A stretch of DNA of 53,369 bases, counting the filler, from Jimgerdemannia flammicorona (taxonomy: Eukaryota), in NCBI GenBank assembly GCA_003990765.1. It is 3 parts of 3 records of this genome, joined end to end, with 100 filler letters (N's around TTAATTAATTAA, not from the genome) between each part and the next. Parts side by side here need not be neighbours in the genome. Positions count along the whole stretch, not along the records: positions 1 to 17,723 come from RBNJ01002437.1; 2 more parts are not named here. One strand, given 5' to 3'. Below the pieces are notes generated by a model. It made no database searches. It saw only the letters and a program-made list of their open reading frames with translations, and had not been told where the DNA came from. The stretch's first letter is position 1, and every line of letters starts with the position of its first letter. The position numbers were made by a program, and so were the translations under genes. Below are positions 1 through 53,369 of this stretch, piece by piece.

Positions 1-210
1 GGTCGGGTTAAAGACGGGTGACGTACGTTTCCAGGTCGGGTTAAAGATGGGTGACGTATAATTCCGGGTCGGGTTAAAGACGGGTGACGTATTATTCCGG
101 GTCGGGTTAAAGACGGGTGACGTATTATTCCGGGTCGGGTTAAAGACGGGTGACGTATAATTCCGGGTCGGGTTAAAGACGGGTGACGTATAATTCCGGG
201 TCGGGTTAAA
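1..210. repeat. 33-bp tandem array, about 6.4 units (GGTCGGGTTAAAGACGGGTGACGTATAATTCCG)
   Basis: Units start at 1, 34, 67, 100, 133, 166 and 199, are nearly identical and have no spacers. Confidence 0.95.
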
Positions 211-245
211 TATGTACACGGGTCGGCTCGGGTTGCGATGCACTA
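1..245. mobile_element. Terminus of a hAT-type DNA transposon with subterminal repeats (truncated by contig start)
   Basis: Ends in GATGCACTA (reverse complement TAGTGCATC), resembling the TAGTGCTC termini of the TSD-verified hAT elements at 33137, 40645 and 51366. CpG-rich sequence switches abruptly to decayed LINE at 246. Confidence 0.6.
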
Positions 246-1930
246 TCTATAGCAATATTCTTAAGAGCCCTATCTCCTCTATCAGCCTGACAGAATATCT
301 ATCATCAGCCCTTTCTATCTTACCATTCTATCTCTCAACACTACTCTTCTCTTATTCTTGAATATATACTACTAGTATTTAGCCAACTCTATCTATATTA
401 TTAATACCTATCCAACAATAAGCCACTTATTATCAATATACTCTATCAACTATACTCTCAAGTTATTCTATCTCTCTCTCTTACTATCATCTTGCTATTA
501 TACTCTTAGATAACTTTTCATTAATATCTAAAAGTCACTAAATATCTATACTCTCTTAACTAATATTCTGGCATCTATACAATCTCTTTCTCTTACTCTA
601 CATTATAATAATTCTTATACTTAAAAACTCCTCTTTCTACCAAATACCCTGAGCTGAAGTTCAATATGATGTTTTTTCTCAAGATATATCACTACACTAT
701 TCAGAACTTAGAAGGAAGCTATTGCTATATCTCAGTACTCCAAGATCAGACTCTAGTCAAATCTCATACTTTATCAATATCTACTGACTGCTAGCCTATA
801 GGCTATAGATCCTGGCCCACTCTCTATTAATAATAAATATCAGTATTAATGTTAAAGTCTAATAGCAGTAAACCACTCAATAGAAATCTGTTCTATTTCT
901 ATATTATAGATCTTTATTATATCTCTCTCTTATTACTATATTAGCATAGACTAATACAGTGAGCCCCCTCTATCACTCTCTATTAGAATTCTTTAAACTA
1001 TAAGTACTGGCTACCTTCTAGTCTAATCAGTAATAATAAATTATCAGTTGAGCCCTTCAGAGAAAATCTAGCCTTCCAGACCTTCTGTATAATAGCACTT
1101 ACTCTTTACTCTATAACTCAATAGCTCTCTTTAGCCACCAAGCTCTAAGATAGTATAATCTCTTTGAAAAGTTCATCAGACCCAGACCACTCCTGTCTAC
1201 CAGAGTTGTCAATATCTTCCAACTTATCTAGCTCCTCTTCTCAACCCAAATCTAATTCTTAGCTATCTTCAACAATCTCTTAACTACTTATACTAGAAAG
1301 TCTAAGTGATAAGTCAGATTTTATAATATTTATAACTAGTAGATATTAAGATTGACATCTGTCTAGTAAGAGAGATATAGTATTTCTCTCAACTCTGAAG
1401 AGTCTTCTCCCATTCTATCACCTTTCTCTCCTACTAAATCCTAGGCAAGACAGATACATATATTGATAGAAATATGCTCAGATACTATACTACCTCTCTA
1501 GCAGAGACAATAGAGCCCACAATATTCTCACTAAACTAAACTATTTCTCAGTACTATTATTTTATACTTATATCAGTTGAGCTTGGTCTCAGAGTACTTC
1601 TTATATATATATATCAATCTATAGCAGTCCTCAGCCTACCAATATTACTAATAGAACTGAGTTTAACTACTATATTATCTGTAAAAGCCCCCACCTTCTA
1701 GTCAATCTCTAAGACTAAAAGCTCAACTATCTTATAATTAATTCTATCTATTAATAGCTCTAATAATAAAGTATATAGAATAAAGAACAGTAGGTCCTTT
1801 TAAGTGACCTCTCTTCTTAAAGAGAATGAGATACTATAATATCTATTATATAAGATTACTGTCTAGCTACTTGCTAAAAGACTGATTATCATCAACTGGA
1901 ACTAATGAGAGATACTAATTCTTTCTAATA
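246..1930 (-). mobile_element. Highly decayed L1/Tx1-like LINE fragment (RT region)
   Basis: Minus-strand remnants SFSLRREVT*KDLLFFILY (about 1780-1830; GVRQGDPLSP-like) and AFTDNIV (about 1670-1690; FADD-like), collinear with the LINE at 8800-9060. Confidence 0.65.
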
Positions 1931-1988
1931 TGTTTTTTTTTTTTTTTTATAGTCACTTGGACTTTGTCATTTATTACTAGTCTATTAA

Positions 1989-2868
1989 TATGGTTATAGT
2001 ATCACCTCTCACTACTCAATCTCCATAGGAGAGCCCCCCCCTACTCTTTTATAGATAAAGACTACTTTCTTACCCATTACTCCAACCCTCCTTCTACTCT
2101 GTTTACAGATTTTCTCTACTAAGCAATGTCTCTGACTACTCTGCAAACCCCAACCAAGCTACCAGCCTGTCATAGTGTCTTCTATAAGCCCATGCCATCT
2201 TGCCAGCCATACTCACAATCTCAGTCTCCTCTTATCCTCAAAAATAAATAACCAGTAATCTGCTAGCCTCATCCAAATTGCCAAAACCCAACCTAAGGTA
2301 AGCCACTCCTTCCCCACCCCCCCAACCAATCTATCCTGCAAATCCTCCCACTGATCCCTCATACTATCTCCCATATACACTATATCTAATTGATCTCCAA
2401 TAGCTCTCCAAAAGTCACTAAGTACCTCACACTCTTCTAGCCAATGTTCAGATGTCTGTATATATCTTCTTTCCTGCTCTACATTATGGTACTCCTTATA
2501 GTTGAAGTATCTCCCCTCAATAAGGTGATCTATGTGGAAGTTGAGCATAACATTCCTCTACAGCATATACCACTAGACCACTCAGTACTTTGGTGGCAGC
2601 CTCCTCCTCACCTCAGCACTCTAGGCCCAGACTCTATGTCAGTCCCACTCCTCTCTGATACCCACCAACTGCCACCCACTGGGCCACAGATCCTGGCCTG
2701 GCCCCCTCTAGCACTCGATCCCATTACTAATATCAAATTCAACTAAGGGAGTACCCCCTAACAATACTCAGTCCCATCTCCACATCACTGGGTCCCAAGG
2801 CATCTCCCCTTTATTTTCTTACCAGCATATTCCAATGTAGTGTACTCTCTCTGCTACCCCTCACTAGA
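1989..2868 (+). repeat. 880-bp direct duplication, copy 1 (left flank of PLE)
   Basis: TATGGTTATAG...CCCTCACTAGA matches 7347-8226, same length, differing by scattered mostly transition substitutions. Confidence 0.95.
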
Positions 2869-3368
2869 GGAGGAAGAAGGCCCAGCAGGAGCCAAGGGAG
2901 CGAACCCAGAGCCAGTGTCAAAGTGAATGGAAGACATGTGGAAAAGTGTATATAAGGGGGACAAACAAAGAACGTAACTGAAAATGCATCAGCCGTTTAT
3001 TGCTACATAAAAACGCGGTCCTTATATACAAAATACGACGTCCCAAAAGGGAGGATGCGCCACAACTCAGGGCGAACCGAATTAGGAACCACATGACCAC
3101 CGGAGATAGGTGGAGATAAAGGGGGAGCCAATCCCAGTTGCAGGATAAAAATCACAAACAAACACAAACAAAACAAATCCAAATCGAGATTAAAAAACAT
3201 CTGTAGACCCCGGAGGGGTGAGCACGAGCGAGGGGTGAGGCCGAAACGGAGTGAGCCACAGCGAGCCTGAGCAAAGCGAGGGGCCGAAGGCAGTGGAGGG
3301 GAGCAGAGTAAGGCCGAGACCCCGGAGCAAGTGCGAGACCCCGGAGGGGGCAAGGATGTTTTTTAATC
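2866..3368 (-). repeat. PLE pseudo-LTR, 3' copy (contains the RT stop, the 5' UTR and the start of ORF1)
   Basis: 503-bp direct repeat of 6524-7026. Confidence 0.93.
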
Positions 3369-5312
3369 CTCTCCAGCAGAACCGGAGGCACCAGAAGGTG
3401 ATGAAAATGCAAAACGAGAGCAATGGATTGAAGAAGAAACAGAAGGAAGACGCGAACGAGCAATCAGAGAATGTCGGGAAAGAGATGAAAGTCCATGGCA
3501 TGAAAGAGAAGAACGCAGGACGGTATCAGGGCATTGAGCGACCCAGCGAGTACAATCAAATGGTACAACGAGAATCGGGGGTGGAAAAGAAGAGGGGGTA
3601 TGGAGAGGGTAAGGGGGGAGAGAGGGAAGGGAGGGGGGATAAAGAGAAGAGAGTAGAGTAGAATGAACAACAGACCATTCAACAGAAGCAAGCAGATCAT
3701 GAATGATAGAAATAGGGTAGGCATGATGATGGACCACGAAGTTGCTAAGAATCCGAACAGCAGACACCCAATCAGAACGACAGAAGCAGCATAGTACAAG
3801 ACGACGAGCCTCACCCCGAATACATTCAAGAAGAGTGTGACGGGGATGGTTGGACAAGAAGTCAGGGAACTGTTGGGAATGGGGAAAACAAGAATAAACA
3901 ACAGTTCGGAAAGGAGAAAGAGAAATGGAAAGGTCTAAAAAGGGAATACTAGTTATACCACACACCCAGGTAATAGAATGGTGGAGAGGGTAGATGCTCA
4001 GGAATACACTAGGGATATCAACACCAGCAACAGCGAAGACAATAAAGTCATCAATGTATTGGCGAAAGAAGATATCTCCAGCCCAGAATGCAATGGAAAG
4101 AGGTGAAGTAATATCATGTAATGCATGCAATTCGTGGGCCAGGCCAACGAGGTTGGCAAGGGTGGGGGCACAATTCGTACCCATGGCAATACCAGAAGTC
4201 TGGTGAAAGGAGTCAAGGGCCGACTCAAAATAATTAAAGCTGCAGACGAGGAGCGTAAGCTCAACAATCGAAGCCAGCGAAACTGGGGAATCCAAAGGAA
4301 AAACCAAGGAACCCAAGAAGCGAAGGCAATCATCGATCTCATCAAAACGAATAGCAGTATAGAAGGAAGAGAAGTCACTAGAGGCCAAATGGGAAAAACG
4401 ATGAACAGGCACAATGGTGGAGCAGAGAAGGGCGAGCTCCTGAGTATTATGAAGAATAGTATACTCAGGCCCAAGACGGTGTTGTAAGAGAGCCATCCAG
4501 GAGAGAAAGAAGCGGGATAACCACTTCGAAATCTCGGTGATAGGAGAACTATAAGCAGCCGTAATAGGACACCAAGCCAAAACAGGCTTGTGAACTTTAG
4601 GAAGAGTATAGAAAACCAGAAGAGAAATATCCGGGGAGGACAAAGAGTCCTGGAAGAAGTTAAAAATAGGGTTCATGAATGGGAAATCCGAAAGCGATCT
4701 AGCATGAGCCAGAGAAACCCGAAGAAGAGTGAGAATTTCATCCAATCCAAGAGCACTAGGCTCATAAGCCGTGGCTTGAAGGAGGGCAGAAAGGCCATCA
4801 AGGTAGAGCAACTTAGGAATAAGTGCAAAACCCTGATTCTTATCAGTGACTGTGGGCAAATGCATAGGCAATTGCTTGACCGATTTAAGCATGGTATGCA
4901 CAGCACAGTCTGAAACCAAGCAAGAGCGAGCTCGTCTGGGAATGGACAGTGAGCAAGCCATGTCAAGGAATATGCAGTGTGAAGAGACATTGGGAGGGGG
5001 GACCCAATTGCTAGGAATAAAATAGTGAGAGGGCATCTCACCATGATCTTGAAAGAAAATGGCAAGATCAAGAGCATGATGAAAACGTGTTAGACGAGCC
5101 AGATCAGTGAAGGAGAATTGTGAGGGAGTCGCAGGAAAAACAAAGTGAGGACCCAAGGATAAGGCAAAGACTTGAAGGAGAGAAAGGGGGCAGTCAGCTG
5201 AAGAAAAAGGAGGAGACAAAAGAGTTCCAAGAGAAGAATAAACCTGAAAGTTCGGGACAAGCAACTGGGAAAGGCGAAGGGGGGACAACATGAGGAACCA
5301 CTCAGGGCACAC
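3363..5312 (-). CDS. Penelope-like reverse transcriptase, no C-terminal endonuclease
   Basis: 649-codon open frame with FYTLPKVHK, SSDFSSFYT, SGIAMGTNCAPTLANL, FRQYIDD, IPFLDL and PLE thumb SNHP...GEARRL...AYP. Start codon uncertain (GTG at 5312 or a downstream ATG). Confidence 0.9.
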   Translation of the reverse strand: MCPEWFLMLSPLRLSQLLVPNFQVYSSLGTLLSPPFSSADCPLSLLQVFALSLGPHFVFPATPSQFSFTDLARLTRFHHALDLAIFFQDHGEMPSHYFIPSNWVPPPNVSSHCIFLDMACSLSIPRRARSCLVSDCAVHTMLKSVKQLPMHLPTVTDKNQGFALIPKLLYLDGLSALLQATAYEPSALGLDEILTLLRVSLAHARSLSDFPFMNPIFNFFQDSLSSPDISLLVFYTLPKVHKPVLAWCPITAAYSSPITEISKWLSRFFLSWMALLQHRLGPEYTILHNTQELALLCSTIVPVHRFSHLASSDFSSFYTAIRFDEIDDCLRFLGSLVFPLDSPVSLASIVELTLLVCSFNYFESALDSFHQTSGIAMGTNCAPTLANLVGLAHELHALHDITSPLSIAFWAGDIFFRQYIDDFIVFAVAGVDIPSVFLSIYPLHHSITWVCGITSIPFLDLSISLSPFRTVVYSCFPHSQQFPDFLSNHPRHTLLECIRGEARRLVLCCFCRSDWVSAVRILSNFVVHHHAYPISIIHDLLASVEWSVVHSTLLSSLYPPSLPSLPPYPLHTPSSFPPPILVVPFDCTRWVAQCPDTVLRSSLSCHGLSSLSRHSLIARSRLPSVSSSIHCSRFAFSSPSGASGSAGED

Positions 5313-5377
5313 CAGAAGCGACGACGGAATCTGAGAAGGGATGGGGACACTGGGGGAGAACTACGCCAGGGGGAAGT

Positions 5378-6595
5378 TTAAGAGCGGAAGGCCTTCCCCT
5401 TCCCTCTGACTTTTTTTGAAGGTGGCGAGCCTGACGAATGAGAGCACACCCCATCAGAGTGCCAGACCTTGTGGCCACAGGCTTTCGTGCAGCCCTTACA
5501 TTCAGGGGCACGGGTGGAGGAGGCAGAGGAGGAACTGGTGGAGGAGGCCGAAGGTGAGTGAGCAGCCGAAGGGGCAGCAGTACGAGGAACACCACCATGA
5601 GGACAGACGGACTTGGCCGGGTGCCAGTAGGCACAGTAGAGGCGACCGGAGCAGACAGCACAAGGCCAGGCCCCGACAGGGCAAGAACCAAGTTGGCGGC
5701 TATGCTTGGGGGCAGGGGGAATGGAGGAGGAAGCCTTGGCAGGGGAGGGGGACCGGGAAGAAGCCAACGAAGCCTGGTTGGGCTTGGCGGGGGTCTTGGC
5801 AGGGGTCTTGGAGGGGGCCTTGGTGGCGGCAGTGGCAAAGGAACGAACCTCAGCACGAGTAGTGGCACGAGCTTCGGCACAGATGGCCTTGGAGACTGAA
5901 ACCTCAGGGGAGGTAGGCAGAGGAGCAGTGGCAGCGGCGCGAGCAGCGGCAGCAGCACGTGATGACTCCTGCTCATGAAGGCGAGCAACAAAAGAGGTGC
6001 CGGCGAGGAGGAAACGATGTATAGCGTCGATGTCAGCGGTGACAGAAGGAATGTCTTGGATGGTGAAGCCACAGAAGGGGGCAGCATCCGAAAGGTGAGA
6101 GGAGGCGAAGACCACAAAAGCGGCACAGGCACATTGGAAGGAGGTGGAAGTGGTGGCAGTGGAAGCAGTGGCAGCATCAGCGGCAGCAAGCTTGGCGGCG
6201 GCAGTGGTGGCACAGACCTCTTTGGAGAGGGCTTGGCGGCAGACCTCAGGGAGAACAGAGTAGCGGACGGCAGGCGGAGCGATGACATCGACATCATGGC
6301 AGAGATGAGCCTCCTTGGCGGAGAGGGCAAGAACCGACCAGAACTGAGAGAGGAGCGGATGACCAGAAGGACGAAGGTCCAGGGGGAGGGAAAGGATGGC
6401 AGAAGAGATGTAGGTCTCGAAGGAGACAGTGGCGGGGGTGAAGGCAGGGGGAGGAGGAGGAGGAAGTACCTCATCCATGAGCTCGTCGATGAGGATGGAG
6501 GCCCTGAGGGCAGGTGGTACAGCAGAGGAGGAAGAAGGCCCAGCGGGAGCCAAGGGAGCAAACCCAGAGCCAGTGTCAAAGCGAATGGAAGACAT
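5378..6595 (-). CDS. PLE ORF1: Ala/Pro/Ser-rich protein with two C-x2-C-x8-WH-x4/5-C zinc-finger-like motifs and a basic C-terminus
   Basis: Intact frame of about 405 aa; the ATG at 6595 is conserved in all three pseudo-LTR copies. Motifs CAVCSGRLYCAYWHPAKSVC, CKGCTKACGHKVWHSDGVC and PPSKKVRGKGK. Confidence 0.78.
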   Translation of the reverse strand: MSSIRFDTGSGFAPLAPAGPSSSSAVPPALRASILIDELMDEVLPPPPPPAFTPATVSFETYISSAILSLPLDLRPSGHPLLSQFWSVLALSAKEAHLCHDVDVIAPPAVRYSVLPEVCRQALSKEVCATTAAAKLAAADAATASTATTSTSFQCACAAFVVFASSHLSDAAPFCGFTIQDIPSVTADIDAIHRFLLAGTSFVARLHEQESSRAAAAARAAATAPLPTSPEVSVSKAICAEARATTRAEVRSFATAATKAPSKTPAKTPAKPNQASLASSRSPSPAKASSSIPPAPKHSRQLGSCPVGAWPCAVCSGRLYCAYWHPAKSVCPHGGVPRTAAPSAAHSPSASSTSSSSASSTRAPECKGCTKACGHKVWHSDGVCSHSSGSPPSKKVRGKGKAFRS

Positions 6596-7026
6596 GTGGA
6601 AAAGCATGTATAAGGGGGATGAACAAAGAACGTAACCGAAAATGCATCAGCCGTTTATTACTATGTAAAAACGTGGTCCTTATATACAAAATACGATGTC
6701 CCAAAAGGGAGGACGTGCCACAACTCGGGGCGAACCGAATTAGGAACCACATGACTGCTGGAGATAGGTGGAGATAAAGGGGGAGCCAATCCCAGTTGCA
6801 GGATAAAAATCACAAACAAACACAAACAAAACAAATCCAAATCGAGATTAAAAAACATCTGCAGACCCTGGAGGGGTAAGCGTGAGCGAGGGGTGAGGCC
6901 GAAACGGAGTGAGCCGCAGCGAGCCCAAGCGAAGCGAGGGGCCAAAGGCAGCGGAGGAGAGCGGAGTAAGGCCGAGACCCCAGAGCGAGCGCAAGACCCC
7001 GGAGGGGGCAAGGATGTTTTTTAATC
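6524..7026 (-). repeat. PLE pseudo-LTR, 5' copy
   Basis: Direct repeat of 2866-3368. Confidence 0.93.
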
Positions 7027-7345
7027 TCGATTTGGATTTGTTTTGTTTGTGTTTATTTGTGATTTTTATCCTGCAACTGGGATTGGCTCCCCCTTTATCT
7101 CCACCTATCTCCGGCAGTCATGTGGTTCCTAATTCGGTTCACCCCGAGTTGTGGCACATCCTCCCTTTTGGGATGTCATATTTTGTATATAAGGACTGCA
7201 TTTTTACATAGCAATAAATGGCTGATGCATTTTCGGTTATGTTCTTTGTTCATCCCCCTTATACACGCTTTTCGCATGTCTTCTGTTCGCTTTGACACTG
7301 GCTCTGGATTCGCTCCCTTGGCTCCCGCTGGGCCTTCTTCCTCCT
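7013..7345 (+). repeat. Inverted partial pseudo-LTR
   Basis: Reverse complement of 6526-6859, overlapping the direct copy by the 14-mer GATGTTTTTTAATC. Confidence 0.93.
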
Positions 7346-7346
7346 T

Positions 7347-8226
7347 TATGGTTATAGTATCACCTCTCACTACCCAATCTCCATAGGAGAGCCCCCCCCT
7401 ACTCTTTTATAGATAAAGACTACTTTCTTACCCATTACTCCAACTCTCCTTCTACTCTGTTTACAGATTTTCTCTACTAAGCAATGTCTCTGACTACTCT
7501 GCAAACCCCAACCAAGCTACCAGCCTATCATAGTGTCTTCTATAAGCCCATGCCATCTCGCCAGCCATATCCCCAATCTCAGTCTCCTCTTATCCTCAAA
7601 AATAAATAACCAGTAATCTGCTAGCCCCATCCAAATTGCCAAAACCCAACCTAAGGTAAGCCACTCCTTCCCCACCCCCACAACCAATCTATCCTGCAAA
7701 TCCTCCCACTGACCCCTCACACTATCTCCCATATACACTATATCTAATTGATCTCCAATAGCTCTCCAAAAGTCACTAAGTACCTCACACTCTTCTAGTC
7801 AATGTTCAGGTGTCTGTATATATCTTCTTTCCTGCTCTACATTATGGCACTCCTTATAGTTGAAGTATCCCCCCTCAATAAGGTGACCTATGTGGAAGTT
7901 GAGCATAACATTCCTCTACAGTATATACCACTAGACCACTCAGTACTTTGGTGGCAGCCTCCTCCTCACCTCAGCACTCTAGGCCCAGACTCTATGCCAG
8001 TCCCACTCCTCTCTGATACCCACCAACTGTCACCCACTGGGCCACAGATCCTGGCCTGGCCCCCTCTAGCACTCGATCCCATTACTAATATCAAATTCAA
8101 CTAAGGGAGCACCCCCTAATAATACTCAGTCCCATCTCCACATCACTGGGTCCCAAGGTATCTCCCCTTTATTTTCTTACCAGCATATTCCAATGTAGTG
8201 TACTATCTCTGCTACCCCTCACTAGA
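7347..8226 (+). repeat. 880-bp direct duplication, copy 2 (right flank of PLE)
   Basis: Matches 1989-2868; the LINE continues uninterrupted from 8227. Confidence 0.95.
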
Positions 8227-9572
8227 AGCCTTTGTGTCTCATGTGTCTAGTGTTCTGAAGCCCAACCAATGATAATAGATCTCCTATAGAGCCTCTCAGT
8301 GAGGCCCTTATCTCCCAGACCTTCTGTAATAGGGGGACCCAGTCACTCCCTCTCAACTCCACCACTCTCTTCAACCTCTATGCTCTCAAGCAGTACAGTC
8401 TCTTTAGAAAGTCAACCAGCCCAAGGCCTCCTCTCATCACTGGTAAGAACAAAACCTCTCAGCTGATCTGACTCCTTCTCTCAGCCCAGATCCACCCCTT
8501 GGCCAGTTTCATTAGTCTCTTCACCACCCAGGCTGAGAAGTCCAGGTAATAGACTAGATACCATAACTTTGGCAACCAGTAGATATTCAAAATCAAGACA
8601 CACCTCACCAAAGATAGATGGCAATCACCCCAACTCTGCAAGGCCTCTTCTCAGATTGTTATCCTTTGCTTTCATCAAAGTTTTGATAGAACTAACCCAT
8701 ATACTGACAAATAGATACCCAAGTACTACACTGCCTCTCCAGCAGAGACAATTGTTCCAATGACATCCCCTCTTACCAGACCATTGCCTAACACTATCAT
8801 TTTGCACTTATGCTAATTGAGTTTAGCCCCAGAGTTCACCTCATACCACTCCACTGTCTCCTTGAGCTCCTCTATATCAGCAATGGATCCCAGGCTGACT
8901 ACCATATCATCTACAAAGGCACCAACTTTCCACCTAATTCCAAAGACTGAGAGCCCAACTATCTTTCATCTAATCCTATCTATTAGAAGTTCCAGGGAGA
9001 GAGTATACAGAATGGGAGACAGTGGGTCTCCCTGGAGTACACCTCTATCCAGGAGAAATACCATCTCTCTATGCCCATTATATGCAAGAAAAGTAATAGG
9101 TAGGTTGAGGTGATAAATGGTCTGATAGTCTTTAAGAGAGTAAGGGTAGGGAAGAGAGAGTATATTAGAGTAGAGTAAAGTGGAGTTAAGATGGAACTAT
9201 TAATGTAGTATAAAGATCTTGAGTTTGTTATAGATTAGTTAATAAAGGAGCCTAGTATTCATAAAAGAGAAATAAAGTAAAATAAAATAAAATAAAATAA
9301 AATAAATAATTATTAAGACTGAAAAAAAAAAAAAAAAAAAAAATAAAAAAAATAAAAAAAAAAAAAAAAAAAAAAACCTATTAGATGAATTGTTTGAGTT
9401 ATAGATAATAGAAAATTAGTTATAAAAAAGGATATTTTTCTAAAATTTTTAATTATTTATAATTAGAACTTTAAGAATTTGATCTGAGTTTATTTATTAA
9501 AAATATTAAAAATATTTATATTAATAATCAGGTTTATAGTTCTGAACTTATAATTGTAAAATAAATTACTAT

Positions 9573-10969
9573 TGTAACAAACCAAAATGTACCACCTAAA
9601 TTATAACTTAGCCAGATGATATGAACAATTAGCATATTTAGCCAACATGATGTGACTACTAGTATATTATAGTTACTCATACCTACCATACTTATAATTA
9701 GCCAGGATATCAGACCAGGGTTGTTTATCTGTATCCTGAGGACACATCTGTGTCTGGCAGACACACTCATGTCCTGTGGATACCTCATGTCCTGTAGATA
9801 CACTCATACCCAGAGGATATACCAAAACATTACCAGAAGTAGTAAATCTATAGTTAGCCACATAGTAACCAGATAGCAACCAATCTATATAAAAATACCT
9901 AGAGACAAGAGTGAATAAACCTCAGTCTGAAATATAAATACTAAAGAAGCCTCTAAAGATTGAGCATTGGTCCCCTTTCCACTCCAGTCTACTTTTCAAT
10001 ACAAAGCCTTGCTGAAGATTTGCTGCTAAGTTTGAGAAAGAACTTCACTATCTTTGGAATTATTGGTACACTTGTCAGACTAAGCCTGAAGAATCTGAGT
10101 TTACTGCCCAAGTTCAAGGAAGAACTTTGCCACTGTTTCCAAGTTATTCTCTACATTCCCAGAAAGCCTAAGAGAAAGCCACCTTGCTTAAGCCAGTTTC
10201 TGATACAACTTCACAGTGAATCTGTTTGCACAAATAAAGTCAGTCTTAGATGTAACTTTGCCAAGAGACCCTTTCCCAAAGCCACCAGTTGTTTATATTC
10301 CCAGAAAGCCTGCTGATTCAGGAAGAATCCACGATATCTGAGTTATCTATACCATCTAAGTTATTATTCTCAGAAGAGCTCAATTCAGAAAAACTCACAC
10401 CATCCAAGTTATTTCCCAGTTAAAGCTGCTGCTTTCAAGAAGCCTGTCAATTCAGGAGAATCCATGACATCCAAGTTATTTATTATTCCCAGTGAGCCCA
10501 AGAAGAATCTGCTACCAGCATAATTCCCAGTAAGAAGAATCTGTATTAAATTAAGTTATCTGCCAAATTATCAGAATATCTCATATAAGGAACCCATTTG
10601 TACTATACAGAGATCATCACATAGAAATTGTATACTTTCGGAGATCACCACCCAAGAAGGAGAACTGCTAAATCACCAGACCATCACACACAGAGATTGT
10701 CATACTATATATGAAATTCTATCAATTCCCAGATTGACCCAAGAAGGAAATCCATTTATACACAAATTGCTGCTATACCCAGAGAACTGTCCCAATAAGG
10801 AAATTGCTTGCTGATATTCAGTTTTGACTATTATACTACTAAATACCACTAAGGATCTCAGGAATCTTAGAACATTTTGTTGCTTTTTGACAAAGTAACT
10901 GGGGGCTCAAGCCAAACTACATCAATCCCCAACCTTGTAATTTGCCTCCATTGAGCTAGGCATATTACA
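9573..10969 (+). repeat. Putative 5' LTR of gypsy family B
   Basis: TGTAACA...TATTACA termini, TATA/AATAAA module at about 9886-9928, followed by a TGG-initiated PBS. No second copy is present to confirm the left edge. Confidence 0.6.
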
Positions 10970-10971
10970 TT

Positions 10972-10980
10972 TGGGGGCTC
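10972..10980 (+). promoter_or_regulatory. Primer binding site TGGGGGCTC (tRNA-Pro-like)
   Basis: Lies 2 nt after the LTR CA end and matches the first 9 nt of the canonical Pro PBS. Confidence 0.55.
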
Positions 10981-11019
10981 CAATGGGAAGATTTCAAAAT
11001 TGATGTGACTTTTCAGCTC

Positions 11020-12210
11020 TTTTTTTTTGTTTAACAGACTCATATCCCATGGATTTTTATTGGAAGGGAACCTAGACTATATAGGCCAAAACCCTCCCCC
11101 ACCACCCACCAAGCACTGCCCCCCCATTAACCTAGACTAGCTATTGTCCAGCAGCTCGACTATGTCAGGCGCAGCAGAGTTGATAAGCCCGCACCTCATT
11201 CTGCACACTATGCTCTCCCTACCACCAGGGGAAACCCAACCATATGCCAACGACCAAAAGTGTATGCCTGAGAACCCAACGTATGTACAAGGCCACGCCC
11301 AAGCTGAATAGAATAGCCCCTGCCACCCCAAAAAGAATGACAGGCAAATAAAAAACCCTCATCAAAGCACAATATGGTGGGTAGGGCCTGGTTCTCCCAG
11401 TTGAGGTGAGTAAAGGACTTACACATAAGGTGGGAGGAAACCCCCAATACCCCACTACTCAAGCCTGTGGGCCTCAATCACGTTGTCATGTCAGCTCCCG
11501 GTTCCAGTTGAGTGTAGCCAAGATGTCTGAAATGGGTAGCCTCGGGCCTCCTGACCCCCCCTGATGACTGGGGCCCAACCCTGCTGACTGCCAAAAGAAG
11601 CCGATAGTGACACCTACTACCTAACCACACTGCACCAATCAAAAGACCCCACCGAAGCAGCACCTGCCCCAGCCCTGACGACTGCCCCCAGCCTGGCACC
11701 CTACTGGTTCACCGTAATCACCCTTCCACCTATCTGTGATGGCCATCTTCCCTCCCATCCCAACAACACCCGAAAAGCAGTCACCTACGCCAGAACCGCA
11801 CTCGCCGGGAAGCTCGCCAAAGCCAGAGGGCCCCACTACAGGCACCGAGGACCTGTAAGTAACCTACACTGAGCACTTGATGCCCAAGGTCGGCCGACTC
11901 CCTATCTAGCCTGAGACATACTGAGACAACTCCTTGTTGGCAATGGCAAAAGGAAGAAGGCGCCGCACTAAAACGGGTACACCCCAGACACAGCTGAAGG
12001 CACTAGAATCTGCGAAAAAGTGGAGGAAGCACCGATCTGATACTGATAAAGGGGCAACTCATCACCATTGCCCTTCTCCCACCATGCCCCTGCAGGCACA
12101 GCAAACCAACCTGAGGTAGAGGGGGTAATATTAGGGGAAAGGAGACTCGGAAGGTCGCCTACCAAATCTTGTGACCAGTAAGGTAGCGGAGAAAAGAGCA
12201 ATCAGACTTG
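11020..12210 (-). mobile_element. Non-LTR retroposon insertion with poly(A) tail and 15-bp TSD
   Basis: TSD GTGACTTTTCAGCTC at 11005-11019 and 12211-12225; T-run at 11020-11028; 3' end resembles 40478-40644. Confidence 0.85.
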
Positions 12211-12733
12211 GTGACTTTTCAGCTCACAAGAACTCACAGTCAAACTAGATACATTTGATACAATACCAATCTCTGCCACCACAGGAGAACTAGTTATCAC
12301 CAGCATCTGGACAAGAAGAGAAGTAATCACATCAAGACTTACCAACTACCCAGCATCAGAAGGATCTCAACCAGAACCAGAAACCAGTATAGCCCAAAAT
12401 CCCCAACTAGATCAACCAGACAATACAGGTGGTCCTGTTGGAGATTTTGAAGAACTTGCACAAGAACTAGAAGATCTTATTATATAAGCCTGAGATCTTA
12501 TAGCCAGATACTCCATTTTAGTCCTACCAATCTCACCAATAGAACCTTTACCACCAGTCTTTGCAGAATTGAAAGTAGCTTCTACAAGAATACCTAGGCT
12601 TATTGCACTCTATCTAAGACCCAGAACACCATCCTCAGGATACCCAAGCACCCCCATCTCCAGTGACAGCTCAGAAAGTGAATCAGAATCAGAATTCAGA
12701 CCAGAACCAGAATCAGAAGAAAGTGATAATAAA

Positions 12734-15700
12734 ATGGCCACCTCATTGCCAACCTTTACAGGATATCTAGAGAAAGACCCCAGAGAATTCCTTGATAGAA
12801 TTGAAGGAATTGCAGCCCTGAGGAATCTCTCAGATGAAAGAAAAATCACCATCTACAAGGCCCAGCTCAGAGAACCAGCCAGAGGAATTTTCCACCAAAC
12901 AGCAAATGATCCAAATTCAGAACTAGCAAGACAGATATAAACAGCAGCATATTATGAGCTAGAATATGTGGCCATGGTCCACTGGCTTATTGAAAAGTAT
13001 GCAGGAAATGAAACCTGCCACAAGGCTTAAGAATCTATCATGGAGATGAAGATGAATCTTAGAGAATCACCCAGAGCCTTCTTCACAAGAATCTAGAAAA
13101 GAATGTATTCCACCAGATTCAATGCCACCAATCAGGACATCATAGGTCCAATGACCTTCATGAATGGAATTCCCCCAAACATTGCCCAGTATGTCTGCAC
13201 TCTAGGCATCAGAAGGTCCAAAGAGTAAGTAGATATAGCCCAAGGATTCTTTGATGTCAGATAAGGAACTACCTGGAGTGATCATGACAAGAAAGAAGAT
13301 AAAGAAGATATCCTGGTCAAAGCCCTACAAGGACTCCTTCAAGAACAAGAAAGGTCCAAGAAAGAAGGCCAGCCAAAGGGAAGAAGGACAGGAGTGAAAT
13401 TCAAGACCTCAGCTCTAAATTGGACCAATTGATTGAGCAGATTGAAAAACTTACCACATGCAAAAATCAGAGTTATCAAGACAACAGAGGATACCCTCCA
13501 CAAAGAAGTCAAGGTTATCTATTAAGAGATAATAGGAGCTACCAGTAAGAGGAAAGAAGATACTCTACCTGAGAGAGAGCCCAAGTCCAATGCTTTTACA
13601 GTAGATAATTCAGACACTATGCTACTGAATTTGACAACAAAAGAAATGACTAAAGAGACTCAGAACTATCAAACCAAAGGAATGATACTCAGAACAAGAA
13701 AACTGAAGCCCACCCTGTTGAAGATTTCAAGGAAGCAAGCAACAGTGAAGACTACAGTGACCTAGACTTGTACCCTATCAAGGTTACCATCCAAAAAACA
13801 GTCTACCCAGCATAGAAGAGGAAGAGACCCATAGGAAGACCATCCAGAAATATCAGCAGAAGAATCATCCAAGAAGAAGATGAAGAACATGAAGAGGAGC
13901 AGATAGAAATACCTCCCCAAACCCCCTCACCTTTTGTCTCCAAGACAAATGAGCTACCACCAGAAGATGAAGAAATAGAACAAGAGGAATAGGAACCTGC
14001 TGCCCCAAAGCCCAAGAAGAAGTATACCCCAAAGACCATGCCCAGAGACATCTACAATGAAGTCTGGCAGAATATTCAAGAAGCCAAGATAGAGGTCCCT
14101 CTTCTGCAGTTCCTGCAACTAACACCAGCTGGAGTTCAAAACAAATTACTGAGGACCACCAGGTCCAGTACTGGCCAAGTTCCAATCCCACAGCAAGAAC
14201 TAGTTCCCATCTCTGTCCAAACAGCTGAGAGACATGTCAGCACCTACCTATATAGAGATATTGGAGGACAAAAAGTGAAAATCCTCATAGACACAGGAGC
14301 AGCTGTCTGTGTCATTGCCAAATGATTTCTTGATACCCTCCAATGGCCCATTGATGGACCATCCAACCTCAGCATCATAGTAGCAGATGGAGCCCAAACT
14401 CAACCCCTTGGAGAAGTATGAAACATCACTATTTCCCTTGGACACATTCAGTTCTCTATCCCAAAAGCTATTGTCACTGAAGCTGTCATCTATGACATAA
14501 TCCTTGGCACCAACTGGATGAAGGAAATGAATACAGTTGTTGATATCAGTCAACAAGTACTCAAGTTTGACTACTGAGGCAAGAAGTACAGAGTTAAGGT
14601 GACCAGCTATGAGCAATTGAAGAAGAAGAAGAAGGTCATCATCCAGGAGAAATATACCAGCAGCAAAGAATCTACCACAGAAGAAGAGGAAGAATCTGAA
14701 GATGGAAATGATCCCAGACTCAACCCCCAAATTAACCTGGTGGATGACAGACCAGAAGACAATGTATGGGTCAAGAACACTGTCCCCATTACCATCAGAG
14801 CCATTGCAGGAGAAATCAAAGGATGCCCCACCTGCCTTAAGAGATACAAGTGCCCTGAGCACTCCTCTAAGATCATTGGAAGAAGGAATTCGCCTGACAC
14901 AGCCTACCCAGAGTGCAGAAAGAAGGAGAAGAAATGCAGACATGTTCCAGAAACACCTGCAGCCAAAGCTGCAGAAGTATAAGCAATTTGGGGCCAAGAA
15001 TTATCTGAGGAAGAAGAAGCTTCTAACCAAGAAGTTCCTGAACAAGAAGTACCTGAAGAAGAAGAGGTCCCTGAACTCATTCTCTGAGATGACTCTCACT
15101 GGATACCACCTGAAGATAATGACCCCTGGAATATCAAAGAAGAATCCAGTACAATCCCCATTATTCCAAAGAAAGAAATACATCAAGAAAGAGCTTTCTG
15201 GTTGGGAAGATGCCCACATCAAATGGTCTTCCACTCTCTCCAAGACTACTGCTACCAGTGCCATCTACTGGACTAGTAAGAAAGATAGAGACCTCAAAGA
15301 CCAGAACCCCCAACTATAGTTGTGCAGTCAACCATCTTTCAAAAAGTTACCATAAGGTTACAAAGTCGATTTAGAGAATAAGGCTTCTTCACCTGAACAG
15401 AAATATATTCCTTGTCTATCCTTTCCCCAACTTATGACCAAGATGGGTACTGATTCCCAAGATAACAAGAAATCAAAAATCAGGAACATCATTTCAGAGC
15501 AATGGAATATTGTAACCATAAAAGACACCCAGACTGCTGAGACTGTAGACATCAGAAGATTCATCTCAGTCATAACATTGCAGTCCATACTTTGAAGAGA
15601 GGAGACAATAGAGATCAGATCCAAAAAAGCTAGACCAAGAAGCCAAGAAGAAGAACCCTCAAGATCTATGATTTAGGAGAAGACATCCTAGCTCTCATCA

Positions 15701-17715
15701 GACATGCAACCTGCCAAGGATAGACAGAAGATACCACCAACTTCATGGAAGTCCTAGACCCTACAAGAAGAAGAGAAATCAATTATCTCTAAGACCCCTC
15801 CACTGGAGCCAGGTGGTCACACCTCAATCTTAGAGCCTGGAGGCTCTCTGCTAGTAGAGCCTCAGCTCAAGGACAGCCTGAACTCAGCAAGGATATTGCC
15901 CAGTATACTCTGCTACATCCCAAGGCCAAACCCCCGACCAAAGTATACCCAGAGGATGTAGGGTATGATCTTTACAGTCTGGAGGATGAATCTATCAAGC
16001 CTGGAAAAAAATTTATAATCAGAACCAGGCTAGCCATGCAGCCACCCCAAGGAGCTTACATCCAACTGATCTCAAGGTCTAGACTTACCAGACAAGGAAT
16101 AACTATAGAAGGAGAAATCATTGACCCAGGATATACAGGTGAAATCAAGGTTATCCTACACAACAGCAGTACAGAATGGCACTGAATTATTAGAGGACAG
16201 AAGATTGCCCAATCAGTCTTCATGAAGGTCAAGACCCTACAATTACAAGAAGTCTCTGAACTGACTGAAGGAACAAGACAAGCCAAAGGATTTGGGAGCT
16301 TAGATAAGAAAGAAGTACATCTCCTTCAAGTCAATCACCTCAAGAGGAATGTTCCCCAGCAAGTATACTGCCAACCAGTCAAACTGCACAAGAATCTAAT
16401 TCTGGAGCCTGGAGAACAAACTACCTTTGAAATCTTTGCACCACCTGACCCCAGGAATCTTTTCTTCAAACCCAATAAAGATATTCCACACTTGGATATA
16501 GAAGAACACACATTCCCTGACAAGATGAATCTAGTGCACTCCCAAGCAATCAACCAAAGTTGGGAAACCATCATCTTGTCAAAAGGAACTATCATAGGAC
16601 ATCTGGTGCCTTTTCTCAACTGAACTTATAGGAAATTTTATGAACTAAACCTATTGGGAAATGGCAAAAGGTCTCAGAAGAAAGGAAAGGCCCCTCTGCG
16701 ATCCAGGAGACAGTGAAGCCTTCCACCACCATTGGAGAAGAATTGACACCCCAGCAACAGTAACAACTAGTAGAACTTCTCAACAAATATCAAGATATCT
16801 TCACTACTAATTATGGCCTTTCTTTGGTACAATAAGTATAGGGCTGGCCCAGGGGCTGGTAGAGGGTCAGATGACTCCATTGTTTAAGAGTTCTTAAATG
16901 TGCTCCTTTTTGAATGTTTTTAAGTAATGGGGTATTCTATAGAGTTTCTGATGGATGAGTGTTGCATTTTCTGTATTGATGCTATAGTGATATAATGGAT
17001 TGTAAGGATAGAGACTCTGTGTAGATTACAGGAAACTCAATTCAGTCACCAAAAAGGATGCCTATCTTTTGTCCAGAATCGATGACCTTTTGGATCAGTT
17101 ACAGGATGCCAGATACTTCAGCAGTATGGATCTTTTTGCAGGATTCCATAAGATCCCCATGGACCTAAGAGATTCAAAAGACAACCTTCCTTGCTTTAGG
17201 AAAACTGTTTAAATACCTCTGAATGTCTTTTGGACTTTGCAATGCACCCCCCCACCTTTCAGAGGATGAATTCAGTCTATACCCCCTTGATCCACCACTG
17301 TCTGATTATATACATGGACAATTCCAATATCTATTCAATAAATTTCAAAGAATACCTATACTATCTAGAGGAATTCTTCAAGCTCACCTGCAAGAACCAC
17401 TTGAGACTAAATGTAAATAAATGCTACTTTGGGAAACAGAAACTTGAATTCCTTGAATTTATGGTTTTGAAAGAAGAAATCCATGCAGACCTGAAGAAAA
17501 CTGAGAAGATCAACAATTGGCCAGTACCCAAGACCCCAAAGGAAACACTATCATTCCTGATGCTAGTATCCTACTATAGAAGGTTTATCAAGGACTTTGC
17601 TCAAATTGCTGCCCAAATCTGGATCCTTCTCAAGAAAGAAGTATCATTAAAATAGACAGAATCATAAGAAATAGCCTTCAAAGAACTCAAGAACTATATG
17701 ACTACAGCACTAATC
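12734..17715 (+). pseudogene. gag-pol of gypsy family B (gag, degenerate zinc knuckle, protease, Cys-rich insert, dUTPase, RT)
   Basis: MATSLPTFTG...DPREFL (gag), ILIDTGAAV (protease, about 14281), LCVDYRKLN (about 17015), IYMDN (YxDD remnant), FLMLVSYYRRFIKDFA; many stops. Confidence 0.9.
15898..16305 (+). pseudogene. Trimeric dUTPase domain within pol, between PR and RT
   Basis: All five motifs present: VGYDL, ISRSRL, EIIDPGYTGEI, KIAQ, RQAKGFGS. Confidence 0.9.
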
Positions 17716-17723
17716 TTTTTTTT

Positions 17724-17823
17724 NNNNNNNNNNNNNNNNNNNNNNNNNNNNNNNNNNNNNNNNNNNNTTAATTAATTAANNNNNNNNNNNNNNNNNNNNN
17801 NNNNNNNNNNNNNNNNNNNNNNN
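17724..17823. other. Artificial contig linker N44-TTAATTAATTAA-N44
   Basis: Six-frame stop linker embedded in Ns. Confidence 0.99.
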
Positions 17824-23292: not shown

Positions 23293-26200
23293 ATGGAAAT
23301 GCATCTCCCCACATTCTATGGATATACTACTGAAGAGTCAATTCTGACCTTCATTGAAGACTTTGAACAATTTGCTGCCATATGAGCCCTTGGTATGGAT
23401 GCTCAATTAGCCCTTCTACCAGTCAGCCTCAGAGGATCTACCAGAGATAAGTTCAATGTAGCTACTATTGCTGATGCTGGTGCAGCCAAACTTATCAACA
23501 TGAAGACCTTTCTCAGAACAACATATTATACTGAAAAGATCAAGCAAGCTCTTAAAGATCAACTCAATACTATTTGCCAGAGACTTAGTGAAGATCCCAA
23601 CTCATTCTATACCTGAATCTGCCACCAGATTGTCTTGGCTGGCTATGATGACCATCTCAAGGAACAAATAGTGGATTCAACCTTCCTTAAAGGAGTTTAC
23701 CCTGAAATTACCCTAGCAATCTGGTCTACCCCAGCTGCACTGACCCTTGATCAGAAAGTGGTCTTTGCACAGAGATATTGGACTGCCAGACACCCTGCCA
23801 AACACTCAATAGAGAAAATAACTGACATCAAGATGGAGCCATCAAAGCTAACTAGTATCATACCTGCCACAGTTGTAAACAGACAACTAACCCCACCTAC
23901 CCCCAAGATAGCCAAAGCTGACCCAGTGGAGGAACTCACCAAGTAGTTCGCTGAGATGACTACATACCTTAATGATGTTGTTAGAGAAGTCTGAAGTGCC
24001 AACAGGAGACCAGTACAGAGATTTGCAGCTACTACAGAAGAATACAATATCACATACTTCAGATGTGGAGAAGAAGACCACTATGCAAAGAGTTATATGA
24101 CCAAAACAAGATGCAAAGCCCAACCAAGTAATGCTAGTAGAACTAGAGAACAAACCAATGCAGTAGTCATTGAGGAGATTGGTGACACTGATGATGAAGA
24201 ATACTATGAGGAGCTCGAATTCTATCCTGCTACTGAAGGTACCAGAACCTGGTCTAAGCCCTATGACAAGAAGAGCAACAGTAAGCCAGTTGGAAGACCA
24301 AAGAAGACCCCAGCTGTCACTATTCAAAGCAAGACCCAACCTGAGGAGATTAATCAAGACATGGAGTTAGATGAAGCTGCCTGTCAAATCATTGAAGGCA
24401 CTACTCCAGTCTCAGAAGAAAGTGAAAGCAAGAAGGAACAGAAGCTGCACAAGACCAAGATTCACCAGTATGATATCTACAAGGACCTCAAGGAACAAAA
24501 GGTCAATGCTACTTTTGGTCAACTAGCTGAAGTCCCTGTCTTCAGACAGCAGTTGAGAGTAGGACTTGCAACTATTGCCAAGAATCAAGAGTACAAGATT
24601 TTAGAAGCTCACAATGTATAGGAAGAATCCAAGAACTCAGGTGAAGAATCCAAAGACCAGCACAAGACATCAGCCTATACCTCATGTCAGATTGAAGACT
24701 GTATCTTTGATGCCATCATTGATACTGGTGCTAGAGGATGCCTCATGAGTAAGAAAGCAATTAACTGCCTAGGTTGGGACATTGAAGAGTCCACCAAGAT
24801 GGTCTATATCACGGCAGATGGTACACAAGCTACCCCACTTGGCAAAATCCGAGAAGTCCCCATCAAGATAGGAGGAGCTACCATCCCAGTAGATATAATT
24901 GTTACAAGTACCACCAACTATAATATCCTCATTGGCAACCAATGGCTTTACAAGGCCAAGGCCATCATTGACCTCAATGTCCAGAAGATGCAGATTAACT
25001 ATAGAGGAAGAAAGGTATGAGTCTCTATCAATGTTCATAAAGGAGTTCTACCAGACATGGAGAAAGGAGATGAAGAGGACACAGAGGTCTTCATGCACTT
25101 GGTGAACAAGAACAAGAATAAGACACCCAAGCTCACAGATGAGCAGTGGTACAATAAGATCATCGATGGGTATACCCCTCAAGAAAGATGCCTCTATGGT
25201 ACTAAGATATACTGCTCTGAACACCTGAATGACTGCTGGTCCTGTATCAGTAAAGTCAGGAAAATAAACCAACAGAAACATGAGCAAGAAGCCACTGAAG
25301 CAAAAAGGAAAGCTGAAGAAGATGACCAGCCCCCAGAGCTTCAAGCTGACAGCAATGATGAGGAGGAATAAGAATCAGACATTACTCTCAAGGTTAAGAA
25401 GTTTCACCCTGAAGCCAAGATCCCAGAATATAAGACTGAAAAAGCCATAGGAATGAACCTTACCAGTATTTAAGATACTACTCTCAAACCACAGACCACC
25501 ACTCTACTTGGCACTGGAATTGGAGTCAAGCTGCCAAAGAACCATGCTGGAATTATCAAGACCAGGAGCAGTCTGACCAAAAGTGAAATCTCAGTTGAAA
25601 GAGGAGTAATTGACCCTGATTACACTGGCAAGATCTTCCTCATAGTCAGAAATTACAACCACACCACCCCTTTTGAGGTCAAGAAGTATGACAGGATTGG
25701 CCAGATGCTGATCCACGAAATCAAGAAGCTCAAGATCATAGAAGCCATCAAACTCATCAAGACTGAGAGAGGAGAACAAGACTTTGGATCTACTGGAAGA
25801 GGAGTCTATACTGCCACCAAGATTACTGAACTTGAGCACAAGAAAGACAAGAACCAGAACAAGTACACATACACTATTGGAGAAAATTTCCCCCTGGAGG
25901 AACAACTTCTCAAGATCCTGCATCAGAATGAAGGAGTACTTGCTACAGACTTCCAGGATATCCATAATCAAGAACCCAAGTACTATTACAAAGTTGACAC
26001 TAGTGATACTAAGCCCATCTACCAGAAAGCCAGACCCATACCACCTGCCTATAGAGAATGGCTGCAAGCAGAACTCAAGAAAATAGAAGAAGCTGGAATC
26101 ATCAAGCAGACTATCAGCCTCTGGGCCTCACCTATTGTCCTTGTCTCAAAGAAAGGAAGCAAGCCTGGAGAGTTTGCACCAAGACTCTGTATTGACTACA

Positions 26201-35546: not shown

Positions 35547-35646
35547 NNNNNNNNNNNNNNNNNNNNNNNNNNNNNNNNNNNNNNNNNNNNTTAATTAATT
35601 AANNNNNNNNNNNNNNNNNNNNNNNNNNNNNNNNNNNNNNNNNNNN
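35547..35646. other. Artificial contig linker N44-TTAATTAATTAA-N44
   Basis: Same linker as 17724-17823. Confidence 0.99.

Positions 35647-40258: not shown

Positions 40259-40314
<56 letters not shown>

Positions 40315-53298: not shown

Positions 53299-53369
<71 letters not shown>

Follow-up and report, generated by a model that had tools for sequence, protein, structure and literature searches.

A Penelope-like element with no detected endonuclease between 880-bp copies of a dead LINE in Jimgerdemannia flammicorona: a probable kilobase-scale target duplication

The stretch of DNA analysed here, a 53-kb window of the Jimgerdemannia flammicorona genome made up of three joined records, carries at 1989-8226 a minus-strand Penelope-like element (PLE) that is bracketed by two direct copies, 880 bp each, of the long interspersed element (LINE) in which it lies. 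Read from the sequence, the locus probably records one insertion of the PLE into a poly(A)-tailed LINE that was already dead, accompanied by an 880-bp duplication of the target. The PLE is predicted to encode a reverse transcriptase (RT) of the Penelope type, and no endonuclease (EN) domain was found in it; the locus is best classed as an EN-less PLE that has the canonical Penelope architecture and whose target duplication is on the kilobase scale. It is known from one copy in one assembly, with a decay of about 1.3% per copy.

Repeats were mapped with a repeat scan and by comparing the first 12 kb with the whole window in blastn. The left copy of the putative duplicated target (A1, 1989-2868) and the right copy (A2, 7347-8226), both of them LINE sequence on the minus strand, comprise the C-terminal part of the LINE open reading frame 2 (ORF2) and the 3' untranslated region (UTR); they align directly over 880 nt without gaps at 97.386% identity (blastn), and their 23 mismatches consist of 20 transitions and 3 transversions. 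The first-pass annotation had described an exact 880-bp duplication, which holds for length and register and not for sequence (97.4% identity); its central observation, a PLE bracketed by 880-bp direct copies of the LINE, was recovered by blastn, with the repeat flush against both ends of the insert. On the left, the arm of the element begins at 2866 and the repeat runs to 2868, so that the two overlap by 3 nt (AGA); on the right, the inverted arm extends to 7348 and the right repeat begins at 7347. Both outer ends of the insert correspond to one and the same element position, ...GGGCCTTCTTCCTCCT(CT), as had been annotated. The AGA at 2866-2868 likewise stands as 3 nt of microhomology, in which the 3' end of the target matches the element terminus, the internal copy of that terminus (M, below) running on as ...CCTCCTCT. 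The right junction carries one extra T, previously described as untemplated; the T is present, and it can equally be read as an element C that mutated to T after insertion, combined with 1 nt of microhomology, since all 37 differences between the two direct terminal repeats of the element are transitions. A strand bias among the A1/A2 transitions (on the plus strand, 18 C/T against 2 G/A) was considered as a possible trace of RNA or cDNA editing and rejected; base composition suffices to produce it (C 299, G 100; Fisher p = 0.18). Sixteen metagenome loci matching the 19-nt PLE terminus were also dismissed as chance, the common stretch being just 21-41 nt and an RT being encoded by none of them.

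Between A1 and A2, the minus-strand PLE comprises two direct pseudo-long terminal repeats (pLTRs) and one inverted, partial pLTR. The 3' pLTR (L, 2866-3368, minus strand, 503 nt) extends from the stop codon of the element's own ORF2 as far as the terminus, taking in the first 28 codons of ORF1; the upstream direct pLTR (M, 6524-7026, minus strand, also 503 nt) is 92.6% identical to L by blastn and lies 3658 bp from it. The inverted arm (R, 7013-7348, plus strand) is a 5'-truncated copy of the terminal 336 nt of the element, with its terminus toward the right flank, and is 92-94% identical to the corresponding stretches of L and M. According to blastn and the repeat scan, M and R overlap by 14 bp (7013-7026), which form a palindromic junction between the direct and the inverted pLTRs. 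Within the 3' UTR of the element, this 14-mer occurs as an intrinsic inverted repeat (positions 1-14 and 168-181), for which the chance expectation in 503 nt is about 5e-4; the pair closes a predicted 181-nt hairpin with a minimum free energy of -66.8 kcal/mol (z = -3.84; equally stable shuffles, 0 of 200). The ORF1 start codon and the first 28 codons lie inside the pLTR (6524-6607 and 2866-2949), and the element terminus is thus placed 84 nt into ORF1. L and M differ at 37 positions, by transitions only, 22 of them in CpG context; the PLE has visibly been losing CpG since its insertion. Partial-tandem pLTRs, optionally with an inverted, 5'-truncated upstream copy, are a hallmark of the PLE class, and the two outward-facing 3' ends that the first-pass annotation had singled out are present without being new; they belong to the canonical Penelope architecture (PMC3846280).

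The host of the insertion is a minus-strand LINE. Reading through 8222-9196 with X at stop codons gave a match to RVT_1 positions 104-203 (E = 1.1e-11; 45.3 bits, where the cut-off is 29.6), and downstream of this non-LTR-type RT come a 3' UTR and poly(A), as is typical of LINEs. The right flank (8227-9196, minus strand) holds the rest of the host LINE, that is, the second half of the RT domain and downstream ORF2 with 9 in-frame stops; the LINE ORF2 frame runs on into the repeated segment, which in our reading holds a zinc-knuckle-like C-terminal ORF2 region. To the left of A1, the last 40 nt of the LINE 3' UTR (1949-1988, minus strand) and a poly(A)16 tail (1933-1948, minus strand; T16 on the plus strand) are present once only, with AATAAA 21 nt upstream of the tail (TTTATT at 1970-1975 on the plus strand). 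Because the LINE extends for these 40 nt to AATAAA and poly(A), the left edge of the repeat falls within the LINE and is distinct from the natural 3' end; the notion that the left edge is such a natural end, and that the repeat represents two independent LINE cDNAs, was rejected on account of this extension and of 12 stop codons common to A1 and A2. The boundary between A2 and the right flank is likewise an internal point of the LINE, because an older paralogue near the window start (LINE-L) is continuous across it: by tblastx, LINE-L 265-1862 is colinear with 7503-9094 without interruption at the boundary, and a global alignment of LINE-L (232-1930) with the host LINE (7470-9165) is almost gapless at 57% identity. 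The homology of the two LINEs fades at about 9094-9165; beyond the host LINE lies an A-rich tract (9261-9376), (ATAAA)n followed by A55. At the other end, window positions 1-231 are occupied by a 33-bp tandem array (6.4 or more copies, 95% matches) that runs off the window start.

The state of decay of the repeats speaks to how the 880-bp duplication came about. In the LINE ORF2 frame, 12 stop codons are common to A1 and A2 and 2 are private to each, and the observed/expected CpG ratio is 0.03 in all LINE copies, versus 0.61 in the PLE. By these marks the ancestor of A1 and A2 is a long-dead, CpG-depleted genomic copy that was duplicated as DNA; the 12 common stops and the CpG ratio of 0.03 in both copies speak against a view of A1 as newly made cDNA of an active LINE master. 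From the host LINE (LINE2) to LINE-L, 336 of 747 substitutions are C>T (232) or G>A (104), and GC content is 31.5% in LINE-L versus 45.3%, which suggests strong methylation-linked or RIP-like (repeat-induced point mutation) deamination of repeats in this genome. Outside CpG, A1 and A2 differ at 22 of 876 positions (2.5%), and the element copies at 15 of 431 (L/M), 11 of 297 (L/R) and 9 of 301 (M/R), or 3.0-3.7%; the two classes do not differ significantly (Fisher p = 0.31-0.68). The element copies are related in a star-like manner, with 13 private changes in L, 12 in R and 7 in M, and all repeats, A1/A2 as well as L/M/R, appear to be of equal age. When changes are polarised as C>T and G>A, a step justified by the dominance of this direction in the genome (the 336 of 747 substitutions above), A1 has 12 derived changes and A2 has 8 (p = 0.50), so that by this measure neither copy is older. 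Given the flush boundaries, the canonical insert, the common dead ancestor and the equal age, a duplication of the target coupled to the insertion is the most economical and most likely reading of the 880-bp repeat; the first-pass annotation had proposed the same, and the common stops, the matching non-CpG divergence and the continuity of LINE-L across the right boundary all fall in with it.

The element's ORF2 (3363-5312, minus strand) encodes a predicted PLE-type RT of 649 aa (P0001), identified by phmmer, Pfam and motif searches, with DKN at residue 157, PKVHK at 238 and YIDD at 419; DKN is described as a conserved PLE motif (PMC13159263). The match to Pfam RVT_1 is weak (E = 0.0072, under the cut-off). 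An exhaustive phmmer search returned 1978 relatives at E<=1e-3; of these, 235 reached E<=1e-10 and 4 reached E<=1e-30, and the nearest (P0003) shares 47% identity. Among the 157 best-scoring relatives that were fetched, 19 bear a PLE-type C-terminal GIY-YIG domain detected with a GIY-YIG hidden Markov model (HMM), and on this ground the candidate RT belongs to the Penelope-like superfamily. A FastTree phylogeny of 143 rows placed the query in a five-row set without GIY-YIG (support 98), outside a 28-row clade (support 97) that contains all 19 GIY-YIG proteins. As a caveat, this tree kept 142 of the 157 relatives, 15 that do not span query residues 235-500 (P0003 among these) having been left out; its query branch is long, its deep support is weak, and its relatives are unnamed, with no Coprina or Athena references.

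ORF1 (5378-6607, minus strand; 409 aa) is the sole upstream frame of ordinary composition, and its predicted product has Cys/His-rich motifs toward the C-terminus and contains the string QCAC. It matched no Pfam family at E<=10; of the 8000 candidates scored (224-716 aa), none qualified as a homologue at E<=0.01; and it showed no similarity to the N-terminal extensions of the 157 RT relatives (best E = 0.35). The RT frame opens at 5360 and ORF1 ends at 5378, in different frames, and no ATG occurs before residue 8 of the RT; the frame break at 5360-5380 could reflect a frameshift, reinitiation or a decay mutation.

The description of the element as endonuclease-less is supported by the domain searches. 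Pfam found no GIY-YIG domain in ORF1, in ORF2 or in the alternative frame, and a PLE-specific GIY-YIG HMM, built from four Pfam-positive relatives and run with filters off over all six frames of 2800-7400 (96 pieces, each 25 aa or longer), gave no sense-strand match. The first-pass annotation had named a GIY-YIG detection in either ORF as one of the results that would overturn its account, and the HMM search of both detected none. The best score, 7.5 bits (E = 0.021 over the 96 pieces), came from a 26-aa antisense match within the pLTR (6628-6705, plus strand), which weakly resembles the start of the domain and is probably noise. The C-terminal GIY-YIG of the EN-bearing PLEs (Penelope/Poseidon, Neptune, Nematis, Hydra) was not found in the element; ORF2 ends within 11 residues of the end of P0003, and Pfam GIY-YIG occurs in just 3 of the 50 next-best relatives (P0011-P0060). 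Naiad and Chlamys elements are described as having an N-terminal GIY-YIG (220-275 aa), joined to the RT by a CxC motif, and as inserting into microsatellites. No N-terminal GIY-YIG of this type was found in ORF1 or in the frames upstream of the RT, with the limit that an HMM based on C-terminal domains may miss a divergent N-terminal one, and neither junction lies in a microsatellite target, both being in unique LINE sequence.

Two further traits known from EN-deficient PLEs were sought. A hammerhead ribozyme was not found by Rfam cmscan of 1-12000 (E<=1), and the hammerhead core CUGANGA...GAAA was absent from the element sense strand in a regular-expression search; a hammerhead motif in the pLTR is reported for all PLE clades except Naiads and most Chlamys (PMC8557442). 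Telomere-complement repeats of the CCC type were absent from the terminal 503 nt of the element, and TTAGGG-type arrays (0 matches) and short-period G-rich arrays were likewise lacking from the 53-kb window, the telomere repeat of the host not having been identified. In predicted coding capacity, the PLE resembles EN-deficient PLEs, yet the hallmarks of Athena and Coprina are missing; the likeness to these two, which the first-pass annotation had named as EN-deficient PLEs, extends to the lack of a detected endonuclease domain and stops short of the telomeric repeats and the hammerhead, and membership of either group is unproven.

If the locus is the product of a single insertion, it may have been built as follows; the order of the steps, and the source of the priming ends, we infer from the structure just described. 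Two 3'-OH ends of the target, on opposite strands and 880 nt apart, would prime cDNA synthesis at one element terminus (...CCTCCTCT), one on the plus strand at 2868 and the other on the minus strand at the base that is now 7347 and corresponds to 1989. With 3' overhangs of 880 nt, the geometry would be that of an ordinary target-site duplication (TSD) stretched about 100-fold. The left-primed cDNA would copy a more-than-unit-length template of 4161 nt, yielding pLTR-ORF1-ORF2-pLTR and reaching position 1 of the upstream 3'-UTR copy, and the right-primed cDNA would copy 336 nt and stop at the base of the 3'-UTR hairpin. Since their 3' ends would be complementary over the 14-nt hairpin stem, the two cDNAs could be joined there, which would explain the 14-bp junction; fill-in of the two 880-nt single-stranded stretches of target would then leave the direct repeat. 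Priming by two target 3' ends at the same element position, as the first-pass annotation had suggested, fits the identical terminus at both ends of the insert. Two other parts of that suggestion are unproven: that the common terminus is the RNA 3' end, to which an internal initiation site is an alternative, the terminus being 84 nt inside ORF1; and that a break or collapsed fork gave rise to the two 3' ends.

As for the source of the 3'-OH ends, the element encodes no recognisable endonuclease, and for this reason we lean, by a modest degree, toward pre-existing nicks or a break or fork intermediate over a nuclease acting in trans. It is conceivable, as speculation, that repair nicks in a methylated, deaminating LINE (CpG observed/expected 0.03) supplied them. 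The L1 RT can use pre-existing DNA lesions, and EN-independent L1 insertions are usually without TSDs. In L1 twin priming, a second target 3'-OH primes on the same RNA and produces an inverted segment, the second primer annealing internally. A bolder statement, that a PLE without endonuclease, hammerhead or telomeric repeats builds the canonical two-strand-primed insertion internally from spontaneous host 3'-OH ends about 0.9 kb apart, is possible, and we advance it tentatively, at somewhat less than even chances; such ends would come from repair nicks in a methylated, deaminating repeat or from a fork intermediate. If it is true, the RT would patch widely staggered lesions and thereby duplicate almost 1 kb of host DNA, and the twin-priming architecture of PLEs would be a property of the RT and its RNA, not of the GIY-YIG nuclease.

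Several alternatives accept or replace parts of this account. The one that survives best, though we consider it unlikely, retains the same insertion and the same TSD and attributes the two nicks to an endonuclease in trans, from an EN-bearing PLE or a LINE, with distant second-strand cleavage as proposed for Dualen. It would sit well with the architecture, which is of the EN-bearing PLE type and which fungal and protist EN-deficient PLEs are said not to have (PMC3846280), with the emergence of EN-deficient lineages within EN-bearing clades (PMC8557442), and with the duplications of about 900 bp produced by EN-bearing Dualen LINEs (PMC9977147). Of the two nick sites, the one on the minus strand is AT-rich (CCATA/TTAAT), in keeping with a preference of PLE endonucleases for AT-rich DNA (PMC11167929); the one on the plus strand (TAGA/AGCC) is not, which counts against this reading. 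The TSDs of EN-bearing PLEs are, moreover, given as 8-10 bp (PMC3846280), and the 53-kb window contains no EN-bearing PLE or intact LINE that could have served as donor (tblastn with the RT found this copy only, and the LINE copies are dead).

A second alternative dispenses with the second target 3' end and derives arm R from one cDNA that snapped back and primed itself at the 14-nt stem of the hairpin. Palindromes recur at the inverted junctions of PLEs and have been interpreted as traces of self-priming (PMC3846280), and the 14-mer here, an inverted repeat intrinsic to the element, closes a hairpin predicted to be stable. We nevertheless judge this improbable: R stops precisely at the terminus of the element, directly against the target, for which self-priming gives no reason, and from the geometry, extension along M would be expected to pass the terminus into ORF1 sequence. 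PLE protein is, besides, reported to extend both strands in vitro (PMC11167929).

An assembly artefact, in which two PLE-in-LINE loci or haplotypes were joined through a collapsed PLE and the 880-bp copies derive from different LINEs, deserves consideration, as the tandem and inverted structures of PLEs are known to trouble assembly (PMC8557442, PMC3846280). It is a long shot here. The 23 substitutions and the absence of indels between A1 and A2, with transitions dominating as they do in the PLE repeats, look biological and unlike consensus error; for unrelated loci, the 12 common stops and a divergence equal to that of the PLE repeats would be coincidence, and the assembled insert is exactly one canonical PLE unit.

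Very improbable, in our estimate, is a LINE-driven chimera, in which a new LINE cDNA, primed in the poly(A) tract of the old LINE, copied about 940 nt of LINE RNA before a template switch to PLE RNA, leaving the left 880 bp as a 5'-truncated LINE cDNA. The 3-nt microhomology at the would-be switch point and the presence of a poly(A) tail on the left would suit it, and L1 template-switch chimeras have a layout like the minus-strand order found here, PLE, LINE 3' part and poly(A). A1, however, carries the 12 premature stops of A2 and the same complete loss of CpG, so that the template would have to be a dead resident copy instead of an active master; A1 has also decayed no less than A2 (12 derived changes against 8), and the path is longer, calling for LINE RNA, a switch of template, the loss of 40 nt of target and priming by the PLE a second time. 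That the LINE first acquired an 880-bp tandem duplication, through replication slippage or unequal exchange, and that the PLE inserted later at its junction without a TSD of its own, is hardly credible, having nothing positive in its favour, requiring the PLE to hit one exact phosphodiester bond so that each of its ends lies flush, and implying an older duplication of which the A1/A2 divergence, no greater than that of the PLE repeats, gives no sign.

The single insertion with an 880-bp target duplication has its own weak points. It is drawn from a single locus in one assembly; the argument from equal age relies on small counts and an approximate CpG filter; and as a stand-in for an empty site LINE-L, a paralogue given as 57-72% diverged, covers the right boundary and not the left, the 33-bp array replacing its 3' part from about 232. 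A nick spacing of 880 nt is without demonstrated enzymology for PLEs, and the PLE literature offers self-priming at a palindrome as the origin of the inverted arm (PMC3846280). Finally, the apparent absence of an endonuclease is negative HMM evidence, and ORF1, at 409 aa, is a predicted protein without homologues.

The window consists mostly of decayed repeats. Beyond the PLE locus it contains an RT fragment at 17200-17652 (RVT_1, E = 8.7e-4), an ORF with a dUTPase domain at 25474-26232 (E = 2e-20) and an EF-hand ORF at 37683-38177 (E = 4e-13); an ORF at 12494-12937 appears gag-like by eye and has no Pfam match. Paired runs of 44 N with 12 bases between them, at 17724-17823 and 35547-35646, are filler at the record joins. 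A T71 homopolymer closes the window (53299-53369), and an A32 run occurs at 40279-40310; these are possibly the tails of other retrocopies.

If the locus is confirmed, it would be the first kilobase-scale target duplication of a PLE of which we are aware, and it would place an EN-less PLE inside a chromosome with an architecture so far tied to EN-bearing PLEs; two-strand priming and the building of pLTRs would then be separable from the element's own nuclease. The case bears on how EN-deficient PLEs, which are relatives of telomerase, obtain primers away from telomeres, and adds to the instances of segmental duplication coupled to a retroelement.

Among characterised elements, the typical Penelope unit is described as an ORF between two pLTRs, with a shorter, adjacent inverted pLTR, a 15-bp overlap and a TSD of 8-10 bp, and the Penelope pLTR takes in the first codons of the ORF (PMC3846280); Naiads are reported to give the same insertion picture as Penelope (PMC8557442). 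As far as its sequence can be read, the locus in Jimgerdemannia matches this canonical structure point for point, the size of the flanking repeat excepted. The likeness is close to Pen2a_Av of Adineta vaga, in which direct pLTRs, an overlapping inverted pLTR (about 15 bp; here 14), an ORF start within the pLTR and a target duplication are all found; Pen2a_Av differs in having a C-terminal GIY-YIG endonuclease and a 9-bp TSD, whereas here no endonuclease was detected, two ORFs are present, and the duplication measures 880 bp (PMC3846280).

With Athena and Coprina, the element shares a coding capacity limited to the RT, the DKN motif, and RT motifs 1-7 and thumb (PMC8557442); it also shares the two-ORF layout with Athena and Coprina-1_Alen (PMC8557442, PMC13159263), and direct terminal repeats of a few hundred bp with the latter (PMC13159263). 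Athena and Coprina are described, in contrast, as residing at chromosome ends and as carrying reverse-complement telomeric repeats and hammerheads, none of which was found here (PMC8557442). The combination of a missing endonuclease with inverted pLTRs is unusual, because fungal and protist EN-deficient PLEs are said to lack the inverted-pLTR organisation that this locus has (PMC3846280). EN-deficient derivatives are reported within EN-bearing clades, namely the Chlamys PLE-X and the Neptune-like MjPLE01; PLE-X targets 28S rDNA (PMC8557442).

The expectation in the first-pass annotation that TSDs measure a few to tens of bp does not hold as a firm limit: among LINEs, Dualen-4b_cRei has a median TSD of about 900 bp and R9 one of 126 bp, both attributed to widely spaced nicks (PMC9977147). 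The parts of the literature on PLE and LINE target duplications that were consulted, which are not exhaustive, mention no PLE whose TSD exceeds tens of bp. The Jimgerdemannia locus is like Dualen-4b_cRei and R9 in that a retroelement is flanked by a long duplication of host DNA; it differs in that these are LINEs with endonucleases of their own (in Dualen, a restriction-like endonuclease, RLE, and an apurinic/apyrimidinic endonuclease, APE), and the element here is a PLE without one (PMC9977147). The purified protein of PAc, a Poseidon element of Anolis, extends both target strands in vitro and starts reverse transcription internally, near the ORF start (PMC11167929). Unlike the element described here, PAc cuts its target with its own GIY-YIG and has a hammerhead; like it, the Jimgerdemannia PLE has a structure that both-strand extension fits, and its terminus, 84 nt into ORF1, recalls the internal initiation site of PAc (PMC11167929).

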